Of a stretch of DNA of 64,000 bases, positions 1,879-14,415 are shown piece by piece. Each line of letters opens with the position of its first letter. The stretch's first letter is position 1. The DNA is taken from NCBI GenBank assembly GCA_963695095.1, contig CAVOFT010000001.1, forward strand, positions 1,952,001 to 2,016,000, given 5' to 3'. The DNA comes from an uncultured bacterium. GTDB lineage: Bacteria; Krumholzibacteriota; Krumholzibacteriia; JACNKJ01. The notes beneath the pieces were generated by a model that searched no databases, was not told where the DNA came from, and saw only the letters and a list, made by a program, of their open reading frames with translations. Made by a program: the position numbers and the translations under genes.

Positions 1879-2634
1879 ATGCGCATCCTGCTCAGCAACG
1901 ACGACGGCATCCATGCGCGCGGGCTGGCCGCCCTGCGCGAGGCGCTGGCCCCGCTCTGCGAACTCTGGGTGGTGGCGCCCGCCTCCCAGCAGAGCGCGAG
2001 CAGCCACAGCCTCACCCTGCACACCATCCTGCGCCGGCACCGCATCGAGGAGCGCGTCTTCGCCGTGGACGGCACGCCGGCCGACAGCGTGCTGATGGCG
2101 ATCAACGGCCTCATGGCGGCGACGCCGCCGGATCTCGTGATCTCGGGCGTCAACCACGGGCCGAACATGGGGGAGGACGTGCACTACTCGGGCACGGTGG
2201 CGGCAGCCATCGAGGCGGCGATCCTCGGCGTGCCGGCCCTGGCCGTCTCGGTGGCGGCCTTCCGGGAGCAGATCTTCAGCGGCGCCACGCAGTTCATCGC
2301 CGACCTGGTGACCCGGCACCCCGAGGAGCTGACGCGGCCCGGCACCCTGCTCAACGTCAACGTGCCCAATCTGCCGGCGGCGGCGATCCGCGGCGTGAGC
2401 ATCACGCGGCTGGGCAGCCGCTACTACGGCGATGTCATTCTGCGCAAGGAGGACCCGCGCGGGCGCGAGTACTTCTGGATCGGCGGTGAGGAGCCCACCT
2501 GGCGCGAAGGGGACGACTCGGACTTCCACGCCGTGCACAGCCGGCAGGAGATCTCGGTCACGCCGCTGGCGCTGGATCTCACGGACCACGGCGGCCGGGC
2601 TGCGCTGGCCCACTGGGCCGAGCGCCGGCCATGA
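1879..2634 (+). CDS. surE: 5'/3'-nucleotidase SurE
   Basis: MRILLSNDDG, GTPADS, SGVNHGPNMG, YSGTVAAA motifs. Confidence 0.97.
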   Translation: MRILLSNDDGIHARGLAALREALAPLCELWVVAPASQQSASSHSLTLHTILRRHRIEERVFAVDGTPADSVLMAINGLMAATPPDLVISGVNHGPNMGEDVHYSGTVAAAIEAAILGVPALAVSVAAFREQIFSGATQFIADLVTRHPEELTRPGTLLNVNVPNLPAAAIRGVSITRLGSRYYGDVILRKEDPRGREYFWIGGEEPTWREGDDSDFHAVHSRQEISVTPLALDLTDHGGRAALAHWAERRP

Positions 2635-3302
2635 GCGGGAGCGCAGGAATGGGTCGGGGCGAGCTCTTCGCCGTAGCCCGGGAGCGGATGGTCGCCCGCT
2701 TGCGGGTGCAGGGCCTGGCGGGGGAGGAGGTGCTCGGCGCCATGGCCGAGCTGCCCCGGCATCTCTTCGTGGATGCCGCGCTGGGGAGTCGAGCCTACGG
2801 CCGCGACGCCCTGCCGATCGGTTACGGGCAGACGCTCTCCCATCCCGAGATCGTGGCCCGCATGACCGAAGCCCTGCTGGTCGAGCCCGGGCAGAAGGTC
2901 CTCGAAGTCGGCACCGGCTCCGGGTACCAGGCCGCGCTCCTCGCCAGCCTGGGCCTGCGGGTGTGGACGCTCGAGCGCATCGCGGGCCTTCTGGAGCGCG
3001 CGCGCCCCCTCTGGGCCCGCCTGGGCCTGGAGACGCTGATCGTGGCTCGCCACGGCGACGGCTACCGCGGCTGGCCGGAAGCCGGCCCCTTCGGGCGCAT
3101 CATCGTGACGGCGGCGCCCCGCGCGGTGCCGACGGCCCTGCTGGGGCAGCTGGCCGAAGGGGGCCTGCTCGTCACCCCCATGGGCGGCGAATCCGATCAG
3201 CGCCTGCTGCGCTTCCGCCTGCAGGGTGAGCGGGCCTTCCGGGAGGATCTCGGCGCCTGTTCCTTCGTGCCGATGCTGAGCCGGACCCTGGGGGCCGGCT
3301 AG
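2631..3302 (+). CDS. pcm: Protein-L-isoaspartate O-methyltransferase
   Basis: LPIGYGQTLS, VLEVGTGSGYQAA, GDGYRGWPEAGPF; ATGA overlap with surE. Confidence 0.95.
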   Translation: MSGSAGMGRGELFAVARERMVARLRVQGLAGEEVLGAMAELPRHLFVDAALGSRAYGRDALPIGYGQTLSHPEIVARMTEALLVEPGQKVLEVGTGSGYQAALLASLGLRVWTLERIAGLLERARPLWARLGLETLIVARHGDGYRGWPEAGPFGRIIVTAAPRAVPTALLGQLAEGGLLVTPMGGESDQRLLRFRLQGERAFREDLGACSFVPMLSRTLGAG

Positions 3303-3467: not shown

Positions 3468-4322
3468 GTGGCGGGCGATTTCGAATCCGTCTATGTCCGG
3501 GAGATTTCGAGAATCCCCGTCTTGGGCCCCGAGAAGGAGCGCGCGCTGGCCCGCCGGCTGCGCGACGGGGATGCTGATGCCCGACGGGAGCTGATCGTCA
3601 GCAACCTCCGGCTGGTGCTCAGCATCGCGCGGTCTTACGCGGGGCGCGGCGTCGGCCTGATGGATATCGTCGAAGAGGGCAACCTGGGCCTCATCCGCGC
3701 CGTGGAGAAGTTCAATCCCGATCGCGGCTTTCGCTTCTCCACCTATGCCTCCTACTGGATCAAGCAGGCCATGGCCCGCGCAGTGGCCAACCAGGGACGG
3801 ACCATCCGCATCCCTTTCCATGTCTACCAGCTCGTGAATCGCTACACGCGCTTGATGGTCCGCGAGAGCCAGGCAGCGAGCAGTTCCGATGCGGAGCTCG
3901 CGCGGCGCCTGCACTGCACCGAGCGCAAGGCCCACCTGCTGCGCAATCTCGTGATGGGGATCCTCTCGCTCGACCTGCTGATGAGCCAGGGCGCGATGAA
4001 GGAGCTCTATGCGGCGGAAGAGAACCGTGTGGGCCAGACGCCGGAAGATGTCGTTGCCCTGCAACTCGAGCACGAGCAGGTGCACCGTCTCATGGACAAG
4101 CTGTCGGAGCGCGAGCGCGCCGTCCTGCGCATTCGCTACGGCTTCGAGTCCGCTGGGGAGTTTCAAACGCTGGAGGAAACGGGGCGCGCCTTCGGGGTCA
4201 CGCGCGAGCGCGCCCGCCAGATCGAGATGAAGGCCTTGCGGAAGCTGCGCTTGCTCCTGCTGAGCGAGGAGGCAGGCAACGGCGAGGTTGGTGAACAGAG
4301 CCCCCGTAGCTCAGGCGGATAG
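3468..4322 (+). CDS. RNA polymerase sigma-70 factor, group 2/RpoS-like (no region 1.1)
   Basis: [68 protein letters not shown] before GTG. Confidence 0.9.
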
Positions 4323-4372
4323 AGCAGCGGTTTCCTAAACCGCGTGGGCAGGTTCGAGTCCTGCCGGGGGTA
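4300..4372 (+). tRNA. tRNA-Arg(CCT)
   Basis: GCCCCCG/CGGGGGT acceptor stem, GCGGT-TTCCTAA-ACCGC anticodon arm, TTCGAGT T-loop. Confidence 0.95.
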
Positions 4373-4410
4373 CCTGATCGGGATGGGTAGGGGCATGGGC
4401 GGTGGGCATG

Positions 4411-4533
4411 AAAAAACGAGGGGCTCACCGCTGAGTACGTATGACTACCCACCCTTCAGAGGCTCGTGCGGCAATCGCTTCGCTGAGATGCATGAGGATA
4501 CGGGGTCACGTACTCCCAGTAGAGCCCACTCGC
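4411..4533 (-). ncRNA. Candidate ~120-nt rod-shaped ncRNA of unknown family
   Basis: Long-range pairing (GGGCTC/GAGCCC, GAGTACG/CGTACTC, TGAC/GTCA), ending in T6, directly downstream of a consensus promoter. Confidence 0.6.
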
Positions 4534-4539
4534 GAACGA

Positions 4540-4568
4540 AGGTTAGCAGCGAGGTCAAGGGCTGTCAA
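4540..4568 (-). promoter_or_regulatory. sigma70 promoter for the candidate ncRNA
   Basis: TTGACA-17 nt-TAACCT on the minus strand. Confidence 0.7.
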
Positions 4569-4669
4569 CGCGGTCCGGCAATATTTTGCGCTATGATGCG
4601 CGTATCCGTAATCCCTGCGTAATGAACGCGTTATCCTGGCTGAAATATCGCCATTCCGTCACCAGGCCG

Positions 4670-4702
4670 AAATAAATAGGCGCCCCTCCAGGAAGGGCGC
4701 CT
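4670..4702 (-). terminator. Rho-independent terminator after the small ORF
   Basis: AGGCGCCCTTC-CTG-GAGGGGCGCCT followed by ATTTATTT. Confidence 0.7.
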
Positions 4703-4734
4703 TAGGTATGGAAAGCCATTGGGTCCTCTTGAAC

Positions 4735-4788
4735 TTAGTCTCGCAACCACCAGAAGAGATCCAGCAGTCCGCAGAAGAACACCAACAT
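4735..4788 (-). CDS. 17-aa hydrophobic peptide MLVFFCGLLDLFWWLRD
   Basis: AAGGAAAGGAGGAG RBS just before ATG; TAA stop; flanked by sigma54-type promoter and terminator; below the ORF-track size cutoff. Confidence 0.6.
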   Translation of the reverse strand: MLVFFCGLLDLFWWLRD

Positions 4789-4840
4789 GGGTTCTCCTCC
4801 TTTCCTTCAGGACCTCGGCCGAGATGTCCGCATCGTGCCT

Positions 4841-4856
4841 TGCAAGGCCCGTGCCG
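4841..4856 (-). promoter_or_regulatory. Putative sigma54 -24/-12 promoter for the small peptide gene
   Basis: CGGCACG-GGCC-TTGCA versus consensus TGGCACG-N4-TTGCW. Confidence 0.6.
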
Positions 4857-4875
4857 TTGCCAAGCAATCCTCGGT

Positions 4876-7372
4876 CTAGCTAGCGATCCGCATGAATACA
4901 AAGGAGATATCGTCGCTCTGGGCACCCTCGCCGAAGCGGGTGAGCTCGTCCAGAAGCTGGTCGGAAAGGCCTTCTAGACCTTCATCCGTGCGCGATTGCA
5001 GCCAGCCCGCCAGGCGCTCCTCGCCATAGGACTCCTGCTGGCGGTCCAGCTGATCCTCCAGCCCGTCCGAGCGCAGGAAGAGCAGGTCCCCCGGACGCAG
5101 TTGCAGCACCCCCTGCAGGTAGGACTGCCCCTGCTCCACCCCCAGCAGCTGACCGCCGCGCCGCAGGCGCTCGAGGCGCCCTTCCCGGCGGAGGAGCCAG
5201 GGCGCGGGCATGCCGGCATTGCAGTAGCGCAGAAGCCCGCTGTCGCGCTCCACCTGCCCATAGAAGAAGCCCGCGAAGGTGCCATGCCGGCGCGCCCGAT
5301 CAGCAACCAGCCGGCCGAGCGACTGGTTCATGCCGGCCAGGACCTGGGCGGGGGCGAGACCGTCGGCGGCCTGGGCGTGGAAGGCCACGGCCACGGAGGA
5401 GATCAGCATCGCCGCCGGGACGCCATGCCCCGTCGCATCGCCGAGGGCGAGACCCAGCCGGCGTTCGTCGAACTCGAGGAAGTCGTAGTAGTCCCCGCCC
5501 ACTTCGCTGCTGGTCCGCATGCGGCCCGCCAGCTCGATCCAGGGCAGGCGAGGCGTGCGGCGGGGGAGGAGGTCGAGCTGGATGCTGCGGGCCAGCTCCA
5601 TCTCGCTGCGCAAGCGCTCCTCCCGGGAGGCCAGGGCGACAAGACTCAGGTTGCGCAGGTGCAGTTCGAGCGGGGCAACCAGCCGCTGCAGGCCTTCGAT
5701 GATCTCCGCGTCGTAGAGCGCCCGGCGCCGGGAAGGACCGAGCACCAGCAGCGCCGGGCGATCGCTGTCGCCGCTGAGGCGAAGCAGCAGGGCCCAATCG
5801 TGGGCCTTGCAGTAGGGGAGGGCCTCCGGGCCCAGCAGGCTCCGCGCCCAGTAGGGGTCCCACTGCTCCGCAGCGAGGAAGCAGCGCTTGCCCAGCAGGG
5901 CCTCCTCGAGAGTGCCAGGCAGGCTGTAGCCGGCGCCAGCGTCGGGGACCGTGATGGAGGCCGGGGAACCGCCCTCGCTTACCCAGCGATCCTGGACGCG
6001 CCAGCTGCCATCGTCCTCGCCTTCCAGCCAGAGCAGCCAGGTGGATTCCGCCTCCCAGCCCAGCCGCGGCAGGAGCGCTCGGCTCAGCTCGCGCCGGCAG
6101 GTGAAGTAGCGCGGGGGCGCGAGCCAGCGCAAGCAATCCTGAAAAGGCGCTTCGCTGCCCTCGCGACTGCGGCGCAACAGGCGGCGGCGCAGGGGCACGA
6201 CCATCGGCAGCGCGATGAGCAGAGCGAGGGTGTCGAAGACGAGGTCTTCGGGAGCGCTTGCTGTCCCGGGGCGCAGCGCGTGCAGCCCGAGTCGAACGAG
6301 GAGGAAGAGGCCGATCAACAGGGCGCTCGCGATGAGGAGCCGGCGCAAACGCGCGGCGCGGTGATAGAGGGCCGGCAGGTCCGGTCCCAGGATGCCCAGG
6401 GCGAAGCTGAGCGGCAGGAGCGTGAGCGACAGGGGAATCCAATCCGCTAGCCCCAGGCGCCGTCCCGGCAGGACCTGGTGCAGTAGCTGGAAGACGACGA
6501 GGGGAAGCAGTCCGAAGAGCGCGGCGATGAGCACGAGGCGGATGCGCCGTCGCTCACGGCGATGCTTGCGCCGGAAGGCCTTGAACACGAGGACGCCGAG
6601 GCCGAGCAACAGCAGGAGGCCGCTCTGGATGGCGGCGACCTGCTGCAGTGTCCGCGCCGGGGCGGCCGTGCCCGCGATCGGAAGATCGGCGAGGATCGCC
6701 GAGGCCGACCACGAGGGCGAGCAAGAGGGGGGGCAGGTAGATCAGCAGGCGCAGGACCAGAGGCCGCGCTCGCCGCTCCGGAAAGAGGATGATGAAGTGG
6801 AGCCAGACCGCGGGCAGCAGCAGGGCGAACACGTCGGCCTTCCACTCCAGGAAGGTCGCCGCCGCACCGGGCCCCGGCCGGGGATCGAGCGCGAAGAGCG
6901 AGCCGATGAGCAGGGTGAGCAGGAAGAAGAGCCTGGCCAGGGGGTCGCGGCGACGGCCCTGCACCCAGTACCCGATGAGGAAGACGGCGATGGCCGCAAG
7001 TGTGCGCAGGCTCAGGCCGAAGCGGCGGCCGAGATCGGGCGGGCGCAGGGATAGCGTCTGCTCGAGGCGTTCGCTTCCGCGCTGCACCTCGAGGCGGATG
7101 GGGCCGGCTCGTGCGCCCGCCACCAGGGCGGCGCTGGCCTCGGCGTCCCGGCGGGGACTGTGGCCGTTGATGCGCAGGAGGCGATCGCCGGCTTGAAGCG
7201 ATGCCTGCCCTTCCCCGGCGGGCGCGTTGGGTATCACCCGCAGCTGCCTGAGGCGGAAGGGGAGCTCCGGCCCCTGCCAGCGCTCGCTGAGGCCGGCGGC
7301 GGCCAAGAGGATCAAGGCGACGAGGGCGAGGGCGGGCAGGGCGCGCCGAAGCCCCAGAAAGAACCTGGCCAT
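4876..7372 (-). CDS. Membrane-bound PP2C/SpoIIE phosphatase with N-terminal PDZ-like domain; split by a +1 frameshift near 6700
   Basis: LQAGDRLLRING (PDZ), multiple TM helices, EVGGDYYDF, GDATGHGVPAAM, SDGLED, DDISFV; ORFs 6554-7372 and 4876-6609 join. Confidence 0.85.
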
Positions 7373-12467: not shown

Positions 12468-12989
12468 CTACCACTCCCCGAAGACGGCATTGAGAGCGGC
12501 ATCGACAATCTGCTCGATGGCCTTCTCCTCCGCGCGGTCGCGGGTGAGCTCGGCGCCGGCCGCACTGCCTTCGACGAAGAAGCTCTCGCTGCCGGTGAAG
12601 CGGCGATTGCTCCAGAGGGCCTCCCCCGTCGCGCTGCGCTGGAAGCTCAGCTCGAGCACGATCGTCAACTTGTACTCGTCGGCGCTGCCGGCCTCGCTGA
12701 TGGAGAAGGGCGCCTCGCTATAGCGAACGACGCTGCCGCTGAGGAGGATAGTCCTCCTGGCCGCGGGGCACCAGGCGCATGCCGCCGTCGGCTTCCAGCG
12801 CTTCGCTGAGCGCAGTCGTGGCCAGCAGTTCCAGATCCGGCTGCGCCGTGCGATTCTCGAGGAACGGCACGGCGACGCTGCCCGTCAGGGCCCGCCCGCG
12901 GCTGCTGCCGTGGTAGTAGCCGCAAGCGGTGGAGAGGAGAAGGATGAGGCCGCTCGCGCAGGCGACGCGCAGGCGCCAGGGCAGCCGTT

Positions 12990-12993
<4 letters not shown>
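12468..12993 (-). CDS. lptE: LPS assembly lipoprotein LptE; +1 frameshift near 12747
   Basis: Lipobox LSTAC-GY, VAVPFLENRT, C-terminal helix AIEQIVDAAL; upstream of holA. Confidence 0.8.

Positions 12994-14415
<1,422 letters not shown>

Follow-up and report, generated by a model that had tools for sequence, protein, structure and literature searches.

A conserved candidate microprotein gene with a sigma-54-type promoter beside a membrane PP2C phosphatase gene in the Krumholzibacteriota

Introduction

Genes of 14-22 codons are invisible to standard annotation, and a locus in a 64,000-nucleotide (nt) stretch of DNA from an uncultured Krumholzibacteriota bacterium (GenBank assembly GCA_963695095.1, contig CAVOFT010000001.1, positions 1,952,001 to 2,016,000 of the forward strand; the whole stretch is hereafter the window) raises the question of whether one of them has gone unseen. 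On the minus strand, positions 4856-4668 hold a sigma-54 box, a 5' palindrome, a Shine-Dalgarno (SD) sequence, a 17-codon open reading frame (ORF1), a second SD-like site, a five-codon frame (ORF2) and a terminator, in that order. Does this unit encode a peptide that is itself the functional product, or is ORF1 a leader, a toxin, or an incidental frame in a regulatory RNA? A preliminary description, made from the letters of the window, had seen here a complete small transcription unit and had offered a small membrane protein, a type I toxin or a Trp/Phe-sensing attenuator as its possible role. The sigma-54 box, SD, ORF1 and terminator are indeed all present at the minus-strand coordinates proposed there, and together they make up such a unit: the promoter is of the sigma-54 type, the SD is strong, the 17-codon frame looks translated, and the terminator is the unit's own; ORF2 is a second mini-ORF that had not been listed. 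Taken alone, the single elements of the unit are not beyond chance (a scan gave one terminator-like site, with 0.7 expected in shuffles), and the case rests on comparison with relatives.

Judged by that comparison, ORF1 is very probably a real, translated and conserved small gene. For the unit as a whole, we lean modestly toward a sigma-54-gated microprotein that acts with the phosphatase encoded next to it and is expressed from an mRNA with a translation-sensitive terminator. A micro-gene kept in one copy and in one place across almost a whole candidate phylum has comparative support above that of most proposed bacterial microproteins. Among the Krumholzibacteriota papers whose titles and abstract openings were screened, none concerned small genes, and a literature search on small proteins with sigma-54 or PP2C found nothing relevant.

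Distribution of the ORF1 Peptide Family

The looser pattern D-x-[FL]-W-W-L-[RK] was run over 208 genomes of the phylum, all of one class, with the reversed pattern as a control. The motif was found in 168 of the 208 genomes, once in 164 and twice in four, against 15 matches in 14 genomes for the control. Among the families of the phylum (f1 to f9, the window belonging to f1), and with the window's own genome omitted from the counts, the motif is present in 10/11 genomes of f1, 82/91 of f2, 30/43 of f4, 19/23 of f5, 8/10 of f6, 6/8 of f7 and 12/13 of f8, and in 0/7 of f3 and 0/1 of f9. The single f9 genome carries MLPIAIFLIIDIFWWMR about 370 nt after its best PP2C match; this W-W-M variant was located through synteny, and the Leu-to-Met change alone had hidden it from the pattern. 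The peptide gene is present in eight of the nine families. In the four f3 genomes inspected, no W-W ORF lies beside the best PP2C match, which is directly followed there by a co-oriented gene that is ruvX/yqgF-like by eye.

Within f1, a DNA-similarity search of 41 related genomes matched the locus in 10 of the 11 other genomes of the family, and the genome that was missed is 77% complete. All 11 f1 loci, the window included, keep the GG-N10-GC promoter box, the SD, the ORF1 frame, the five-codon ORF2 and the hairpin. ORF1 has 16-18 codons in these loci and ends D-[IL]-F-W-W-L-[RK]-[DG]-stop in all 11.

The comparisons below use 68 loci from seven families (11 from f1, 25 from f2, 13 from f4, five from f5, eight from f6, five from f7 and one from f8). 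Four motif matches are omitted from this set: three situated within long ORFs (L032/L099 and L098) and L095, a second copy in genome G174. The set was mostly drawn with the motif itself, its related genomes are not independent samples, and all the organisms are uncultured and represented by metagenome-assembled genomes (MAGs). Retrieval did not use the motif pattern for f1 (DNA similarity), f8 (similarity to the noncoding RNA described below) and f9 (phosphatase synteny).

A strict motif scan over one genome from each of 185,579 species gave nine places, seven of which belong to the same family; by our own estimate, about 1.6 chance matches are expected in a scan of this size. A match in Corynebacterium lies inside a gene and was put down to chance. 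Another, L028, is a 28-codon ORF, MKNKIIYAFSLMLSFTVLYLDIFWWLRD, in a Woesearchaeota MAG (match at 701-727); it has no PP2C gene nearby and was not taken as a relative. The last nine residues of the L028 frame are identical to those of the window peptide; its contig is archaeal, with 29% G+C, and the resemblance may be coincidental. Among the four genomes with a second motif match, three of these matches were examined: two sit within longer reading frames and have the appearance of chance matches, and the third, L095 (G174:C99), is a copy of 23 codons with an SD ahead of it, MTPEILFGLMVVDILWWLRKINH, whose genome has the standard copy as well. L095 has no phosphatase gene upstream within the locus and is the sole clear paralogue seen.

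The peptides have no evident place among described families. No Pfam or NCBIfam family was matched by 13 peptides of 21-22 residues from other loci at E values up to 10; sub-threshold, transmembrane-like resemblances came from Pfam (CydS, E 0.022; VEGFR-2 TMD, E 0.034) and none from NCBIfam. None of 10 peptides of the same lengths, again from loci other than the window, was found in a collection of about 15 billion predicted proteins. We regard ORF1 as a bacterial microprotein gene of a new family, with a sigma-54 promoter, a fixed putative phosphatase partner and an unusual mini-cistron that abuts the terminator.

Conservation of the Peptide Sequence

Members of the family have 14-22 residues and share the C-terminal core D-[LI]-[FL]-W-W-[LM]-[RK], which is followed by zero to two residues. 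The core is essentially invariant, and the N-terminal part varies in length and sequence. The f4 and f7 peptides consist of MLPI, four to seven hydrophobic residues and D-L-[FL]-W-W-L-[RK]; those of f5 read MRIxL[IV]DL[LF]WWL with three basic residues after it in four of five loci; and the f8 peptide is MPKIYFIDLLWWLRR. The f2 and f6 peptides, of 20-22 residues, begin with an acidic or polar stretch and contain a hydrophobic core of 10-12 residues. After W-W, the 68 loci continue with LRK (25), LR (16), LRR (8), LRD (7), LKD (3), LRRR (3), LK (2) or, once each, LKG, LKK, LRRK and LKKR. The distance from W-W to the stop is two to four residues, and the stop codon is TGA in 39 loci, TAA in 16 and TAG in 13. 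The mostly basic residues after W-W-L, together with the layout of the f2 and f6 peptides, would fit a peptide of the membrane interface.

Because most loci were retrieved with the pattern, its fixed letters prove nothing, and what matters is which of the permitted codons are used. Thus, the tandem TGG TGG of all 68 loci was required by the pattern, although it is also kept in the 11 f1 loci retrieved through DNA similarity. At the position after W-W, where eight YTN codons were permitted, all six Leu codons occur (TTG 29, CTG 22, TTA 7, CTC 4, CTT 4, CTA 2) and the Phe codons never do. The next position is Arg in 60 loci and Lys in eight, written with eight codons, and the Asn, Ser, His and Gln that were also permitted are never seen. 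The invariant Asp is encoded by GAT in 35 loci and by GAC in 33, and the position after it is solely Leu or Ile, never Val, Met or Phe. Since synonymous codons turn over while the amino acids are kept, selection acts on the peptide rather than on the RNA sequence, which rules out a purely RNA-level constraint of the kind expected if the unit were a noncoding small RNA (sRNA) with an incidental ORF. The f1, f8 and f9 loci, which were retrieved without the pattern, agree with conservation at the peptide level, and ORF1 is the only frame that stays open across its region in every one of the 11 f1 loci. A weak Rfam match to the Caulobacter sRNA CC2171 (RF01867; 22.8 bits, E 0.04) scores far below the gathering threshold of 75, and its aligned parts are the SD and the terminator only.

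An SD-like site precedes the assigned ORF1 start in 68/68 loci, with starts being inferred and nine of them assigned by eye from the SD where the automatic choice had failed. In f1 the site reads AAGGAGG, in f4 GGAGGTGATC, and in f7 AAGGAGGT or AGGAGGTG. Pairing of the SD does not seem to be shaped by codon choice, as its probability is 0.62 in the native sequence and 0.62 in synonymous recodings; the mean energy z-score of -1.1 in the same test is confounded, the synonyms having been drawn uniformly rather than by GC content. In f4, the candidate long-range 5'-3' helices, and one pairing codons 2-3 with the W-W codons, showed one-sided changes only and were not counted as structure.

The Sigma-54-Type Promoter

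The strict box GGCAY-N6-TGC lies 47-56 nt before the ORF1 ATG in f1 and 67-96 nt before it in the other families. It is found in 11/11 loci of f1, 13/13 of f4, 8/8 of f6, 3/5 of f7, 1/5 of f5, 0/1 of f8 and 1/25 of f2, and the relaxed form, GG-N10-GC, in 11/11, 13/13, 8/8, 5/5, 5/5, 1/1 and 12/25 loci of the same families, with 10 of the 12 in f2 at a consistent distance. Overall, 55 of the 68 loci have the relaxed box, against six relaxed matches and one strict match among 68 reversed-sequence controls. The GG-N10-GC box is kept in seven of the nine families, one of them (f2) in only about half its loci. The preliminary description had named conservation in relatives as its check, and that check came out in its favor: the frame, the SD and the -24/-12 box are kept across the phylum. 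The f2 loci without a box (e.g., L065, L079, L080, L083) have a common CTCAAG or CTAAAG at the expected transcript start; they may have undergone a promoter swap, or their box may be too degenerate for the pattern.

In the 3.64-Mb genome of the window (70% G+C), the loose pattern GGCAY-N6-TGC has 301 matches and is no commoner than at neighboring spacings, and GGCAC-N5-TTGC has 28 matches over both strands (7.2 Mb). The genome encodes rpoN, with one Sigma54_DBD match of 217 bits, and has about 20 strong Sigma54_activat matches, the mark of bacterial enhancer-binding proteins. The activator gene closest to the unit, some 8 kb away, encodes an NtrC-like response regulator that contains a sigma-54 interaction domain. 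The GG and GC dinucleotides at N10 spacing within a TGGCAC-N5-TTGCW-like context, in a genome that encodes sigma-54 and its activators, are what a sigma-54 promoter should show, and we treat the element as a predicted promoter of this class. From the position of the box, transcription would be expected to start at about 4831-4829. The sequence upstream of the box is the 3' end of the phosphatase coding sequence, and conservation there is confounded.

Qrr and GlmY are sigma-54-dependent small noncoding regulators, and the present unit is like them in being a short, stand-alone, terminator-bounded transcript predicted to come from a -24/-12 promoter. Unlike those RNAs, the ORF1 transcript has a strong SD followed by a frame whose amino-acid sequence is conserved.

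The Adjacent Phosphatase Gene and the Downstream Side

Directly upstream of the unit, on the same strand, is a gene of 577 codons whose product matches Pfam SpoIIE at residues 381-575 (E 5.5e-43) and has four predicted N-terminal transmembrane helices within residues 25-140 (Kyte-Doolittle hydropathy). A tblastn search with this phosphatase placed a match next to the peptide gene in 29 of the 31 loci searched, and the two misses are a chance motif match and a contig end. In a second batch, 36 of 40 loci have the phosphatase gene upstream and in the same orientation; of the other four, two are chance matches, one is the extra copy in G174, and one has the phosphatase gene downstream and convergent. 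Across the 68-locus set, a PP2C gene is upstream on the same strand in 66 loci, with a contig end and an inverted neighbor as the exceptions.

On the downstream side, the two longest ORFs after each unit were scanned against Pfam (122 ORFs from 66 loci), which gave a family in 44 loci. The Pfam-supported gene is convergent in 40 of these 44; by family, the convergent genes are those for a sigma factor (f1), an AhpC/TlpA-like thiol protein (f2), a phosphoribosyltransferase (f4 and f7) and FG-GAP proteins (f6). The four co-oriented genes belong to four different families. The unit thus stands at the end of a transcription block, with no conserved gene that it could regulate in cis, and this is the main argument against any attenuator reading. 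The Trp/Phe-sensing attenuator of the preliminary description does find its tandem regulatory codons ahead of a terminator, as in trpL, but the co-oriented operon beyond the terminator is missing, and the idea loses its footing because the next genes mostly converge on the unit.

ORF2 and the Terminator

ORF2 was scored wherever the stretch that separates the hairpin from the ORF1 stop has an ATG or GTG whose in-frame stop falls no more than 5 nt ahead of the stem or 12 nt into it. By this measure, it is present in 40 of 44 loci of f1, f2 and f6 (11/11, 23/25 and 6/8), where spacer shuffles give an expectation of 11.4, and in 2 of 24 loci of f4, f5, f7 and f8 (3.0 expected), one of these two on a mis-called hairpin. 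The placement of ORF2 relative to the terminator is non-random in f1, f2 and f6. Three of the four misses (L041, L043, L076) have an ORF2 by eye, the automated finder having taken the wrong stem, and L077 is truly without an in-frame ORF2 stop.

ORF2 has 4-14 codons, most often five, and starts in one of three ways: with an SD of its own (f1), with an ATGA or GTGA overlap on the ORF1 stop (most f2 loci and 4/8 f6 loci), or after a gap of 1-5 nt. In f1, it has exactly five codons in 11/11 loci and GAGG or GGGG 5-7 nt before its ATG in 11/11, and its sequence is not conserved (MAFHT, MLCHG, MPFER, MIDSS, MTTVH, MKTVT, MKFDT, MISDL, MVFDF, MVFGT and MVFDI). The ORF2 stop codon reaches into the terminator stem, whose first paired base is the last A of that codon. 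Of the families without ORF2, f5 and f8 have the ORF1 stop itself 8-12 nt before the hairpin, and f4 and f7 have it 27-52 nt from the hairpin (13/18 loci with the hairpin called correctly).

RNAalifold retains nine predicted pairs with two-sided changes in the f1 alignment, most of them in the terminator stem, and seven pairs in the f4 alignment have two-sided changes. The 5' hairpin of the preliminary description survives in part. Its palindrome is in the window and can be found by eye in 8/11 f1 loci with both arms changed (ATCTCGG/CCGAGAT, TCCCGG/CCGGGA, TCCCTGG/CCAGGGA, GGAATCC/GGATTCC), but it is absent from the RNAalifold prediction and from the single-sequence minimum-free-energy fold. 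The terminator stem TTCCCG...CGGGAA is common to f4, f5, f7 and f8, and many f4 and f7 terminators (e.g., L049, L055, L061) have the loop GGGGTGT; such sequence conservation exceeds the need of a plain terminator.

The pyrBI and pyrE attenuators of E. coli are translation-sensitive intrinsic terminators. The present arrangement is similar in that the ORF2 stop abuts, or lies within, the 5' arm of the terminator, so that a terminating ribosome must open the hairpin. By contrast, ORF2 is a dedicated mini-cistron without a conserved product, it follows another small ORF, and there is usually no co-oriented gene beyond its terminator. In one E. coli study, repression of a Rho-independent terminator is reported to be almost complete when a few base pairs separate it from the gene before it; termination efficiency rises with distance, and the authors credit the ribosome (PMC4824070). 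Going by that precedent, a ribosome that completes ORF2 should keep the hairpin from forming or open it again.

Proposed Role of the Unit

In the reading that we favor, the unit would be silent by default, because a sigma-54 promoter needs an enhancer-binding activator, and would stay off until such an activator fires. An mRNA of about 160 nt would then be made and efficiently translated from the strong SD, and the released ORF1 peptide would be the functional product. With its hydrophobic N-terminal half, Trp pair and basic tail, the peptide would join the membrane interface and act on or with the membrane PP2C phosphatase encoded just upstream. The role of ORF2 would be positional, in that ribosomes in f1, f2 and f6 would be carried onto the foot of the terminator; since the ORF2 stop lies on the first base pair of the hairpin, a ribosome finishing ORF2 must melt it, and the fate of the transcript (termination efficiency or 3'-end stability) would then track translation. 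Among the roles first suggested for the locus, we infer that a small membrane protein is the best remaining one. The partnership with the phosphatase, taken by itself, is suggested by gene order, and we put it forward tentatively.

Small membrane proteins regulate sensor proteins in enterobacteria, where MgrB acts on PhoQ. The likeness to MgrB/PhoQ lies in a tiny hydrophobic peptide, an inducible unit of its own and a presumed action on a membrane-embedded signaling enzyme. On the other hand, the ORF1 peptide, at 14-22 residues, is shorter than typical regulators of this kind and has no sequence relationship to them (the Pfam and NCBIfam scans were empty), the enzyme is a PP2C phosphatase and not a histidine kinase, the promoter is of the sigma-54 type, and the partnership is read from gene order. 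If the proposal holds, the unit would give a handle on the control of a membrane PP2C phosphatase in organisms not yet grown. The mini-cistron whose stop falls on the first base pair of a terminator is, in addition, a clean natural setting in which to study how ribosomes control intrinsic termination or mRNA decay.

Several points weigh against this reading. The link to the phosphatase is one of gene order, and f3 has related PP2C genes with no peptide gene beside the best match. About half of the f2 loci have no recognizable GG-N10-GC box. In four families the peptide has just 14-15 residues, too short for a membrane-spanning helix, and an invariant C-terminus with a variable N-terminus is also what a ribosome-arrest peptide would be expected to show. 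ORF2 is absent from f4, f5, f7 and f8, and its role is therefore not essential to the function of the peptide; moreover, the gene beyond the terminator is convergent and the benefit of read-through is not evident, which makes this the least explained part of the proposal. The transcription start, translation and the peptide itself are predictions from sequence. No sequencing run contained half of the words of 4380-4900. In the four runs examined, whose data are contigs and do not show 5' ends, ORF1 is covered by a single RNA-library contig (8,235 nt), which spans 4736-4856 and 4411-4534; it does not demonstrate a transcript, because its 8.2-kb length could mean DNA, and missing coverage elsewhere carries no weight.

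Alternative Explanations

ORF1 might instead be a ribosome-arrest or leader peptide, in which a stall at D-x-x-W-W-L-R controls re-initiation at ORF2 and the terminator, and the released peptide has no function. The invariant C-terminus with tandem Trp codons would suit such a stall, as would the ATGA overlap that couples ORF2 to ORF1 in most f2 loci, the ORF2 stop at the terminator and, in f5 and f8, the short distance from the ORF1 stop to the hairpin. A precedent of similar size is PepNL, a 14-residue arrest peptide that acts at the stop codon and whose stop-codon read-through is specifically UGA-dependent (PMC11890864). ORF1 resembles TnaC and PepNL in its very short frame, a conserved C-terminal segment by the stop codon and the involvement of Trp. 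It differs from them in lacking a conserved downstream gene and in varying both the stop codon and the distance from the motif to the stop. All three stop codons are used, at two to four residues from W-W, in contrast to the UGA-specific read-through described for PepNL (PMC11890864), and the mostly convergent downstream genes offer no conserved target. The f4 and f7 loci, where ORF2 is missing and the hairpin is well away from the stop, keep the core equally conserved. Neither the fixed motif-to-stop register nor the regulated downstream gene of an arrest peptide was found, and we consider this explanation unlikely.

A second possibility goes further than the reading that we favor and makes the unit a self-contained module, in which the W-W peptide is a ligand or autoinducer-like signal of the PP2C phosphatase, with feedback on the sigma-54 promoter and ORF2 as a translation-gated switch. 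If this were true, the ORF2 switch would decide between a stable short RNA and read-through, and the locus would be a ComRS-like circuit built from entirely different parts, with a new use of a mini-cistron in coupling ribosome traffic to 3'-end formation. We regard so complete a circuit as quite unlikely.

The simpler form of this idea, in which a secreted or membrane-released signaling peptide is sensed directly or indirectly by the adjacent phosphatase with sigma-54-dependent feedback, as in streptococcal ComR/ComS, also seems improbable. In type II ComS/XIP, the mature pheromone is the C-terminal seven or eight residues and includes a required W-W motif (PMC5131902). The likeness is a tiny ORF directly downstream of a sensor or regulator gene, with its own inducible promoter and a conserved C-terminal W-W, and the 7-10 C-terminal residues conserved here from the invariant Asp onward would be comparable. 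A small ORF with a promoter of its own is, in this locus as well, placed directly downstream of a membrane sensor-type gene. Yet the phylum is another one, the upstream gene encodes a SpoIIE/PP2C phosphatase and not ComR or Rgg, the promoter is of the sigma-54 type, and a basic tail follows W-W. No ComR/Rgg-type receptor, exporter or processing gene was found in the neighborhood examined. As a member of the Fibrobacteres-Chlorobi-Bacteroidetes (FCB) group, the host is presumably diderm, in which case a peptide without a signal sequence would need to cross two membranes. The similarity comes down to one short motif and gene order, and it is a resemblance, not homology.

A type I toxin, that is, a hydrophobic membrane-damaging peptide under tight transcriptional or antisense control, was among the roles first proposed, and the small, hydrophobic, Trp-rich peptide with its cationic tail, the very strong SD and the default-silent promoter could be taken to fit it. 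Type I toxins typically have a patchy and multicopy distribution, whereas this gene is single-copy, syntenic and conserved in eight of nine families of the phylum. Nor is there an antisense RNA element conserved across the f1 alignment, and a sigma-70 scan of 4100-5100 gave 0 sites for an antisense promoter. The plus-strand TATGAT suggested as such a promoter does exist, at 4592-4597, but it is found in only one of the three genomes of the genus, being missing from the other two, and the spacer is not conserved. The toxin reading is thus very improbable. Finally, a trpL-like Trp/Phe attenuator or a purely noncoding sRNA is hardly credible given the downstream gene order and codon usage described above, and the terminator is predicted to fold independently, with no helix competing for its 5' arm in the single-sequence or alignment fold (alternative folds not enumerated exhaustively).

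Features of the Locus and the Downstream Noncoding RNA

The features of the unit and its surroundings in the window are listed in Table 1. Beyond the terminator, the window has a conserved noncoding stretch, a tRNA-Arg(CCT) gene, and then a convergent RpoS-like sigma factor gene and pcm. The tRNA gene overlaps the listed end of the RpoS-like ORF by 23 nt, and pcm stands just upstream of the sigma factor gene, an arrangement of pcm and rpoS that is also known from proteobacteria.

Table 1. Positions of features of the ORF1 unit and neighboring features in the window.
Feature	Position	Strand	Remarks
Sigma-54-type -24/-12 element	4841..4856	-	CGGCACG-GGCC-TTGCA; GG 4855-4854, GC 4843-4842, spacing exactly N10
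5' palindrome/stem-loop CATCTCGGCCGAGGT	~4812..4826	-	Leader sequence
SD of ORF1 AAGGAAAGGAGGAG	4793..4806	-	Sequence
ORF1, 17 codons + TAA, encodes MLVFFCGLLDLFWWLRD	4735..4788	-	ATG at 4788, TAA 4737-4735
SD-like AAGAGGA of ORF2	4724..4730	-	Sequence
ORF2, 5 codons + TAA, MAFHT	4702..4719	-	ATG at 4719, TAA 4704-4702
Intrinsic terminator	4668..4702	-	Stem 4702-4678 (11 pairs, 8 G-C, loop 3), then U-rich tail ATTTATTTCG
Membrane-anchored PP2C (SpoIIE-family) phosphatase gene, upstream neighbor	4876..6609	-	Pfam SpoIIE, conserved adjacency
NtrC-like response regulator gene	12718..14415	-	Nearest sigma-54 activator
Spacer, terminator to -35 of noncoding RNA	4569..4677	-	
Candidate structured noncoding RNA	4411..4568	-	About 120 nt; promoter TTGACA 4568-4563, 17 nt, TGCTAACCT 4548-4540; T-run end 4416-4411
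tRNA-Arg(CCT) gene	4300..4374	+	
RpoS-like sigma factor gene	3468..4322	+	Listed ORF
pcm	2631..3302		

The noncoding stretch just downstream of the unit holds a candidate structured RNA with a sigma-70-type promoter (TTGACA-N17-TAACCT). It folds as one long rod (-53.7 kcal/mol, z -2.6), and its apical 33 nt are nearly invariant in 11 f1 genomes and one f8 genome, with two-sided changes at 10 stem pairs. In an Rfam scan of 3500-6000 at E values up to 10, no family matched this RNA. The genome has no match to RF00013 (6S) at E up to 1, and its signal recognition particle RNA is located elsewhere. The element is a candidate for a new sRNA or a divergent 6S-like RNA. Short RNA-library contigs from two libraries (172 nt and 151 nt) cover 4410-4533 and 4412-4524, which is a weak hint of its expression. 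The preliminary description had linked the unit to this RNA, and that link is not borne out: the RNA has its own promoter, it was seen downstream of the unit in f1 and f8 only, and 0/19 f4/f6 loci carry it, with f2, f5, f7 and f9 outside this check. The spacer between the terminator and the -35 element of the RNA is exactly 109 nt long in all three genomes of the genus and diverges in sequence save for a common ATTACG box.

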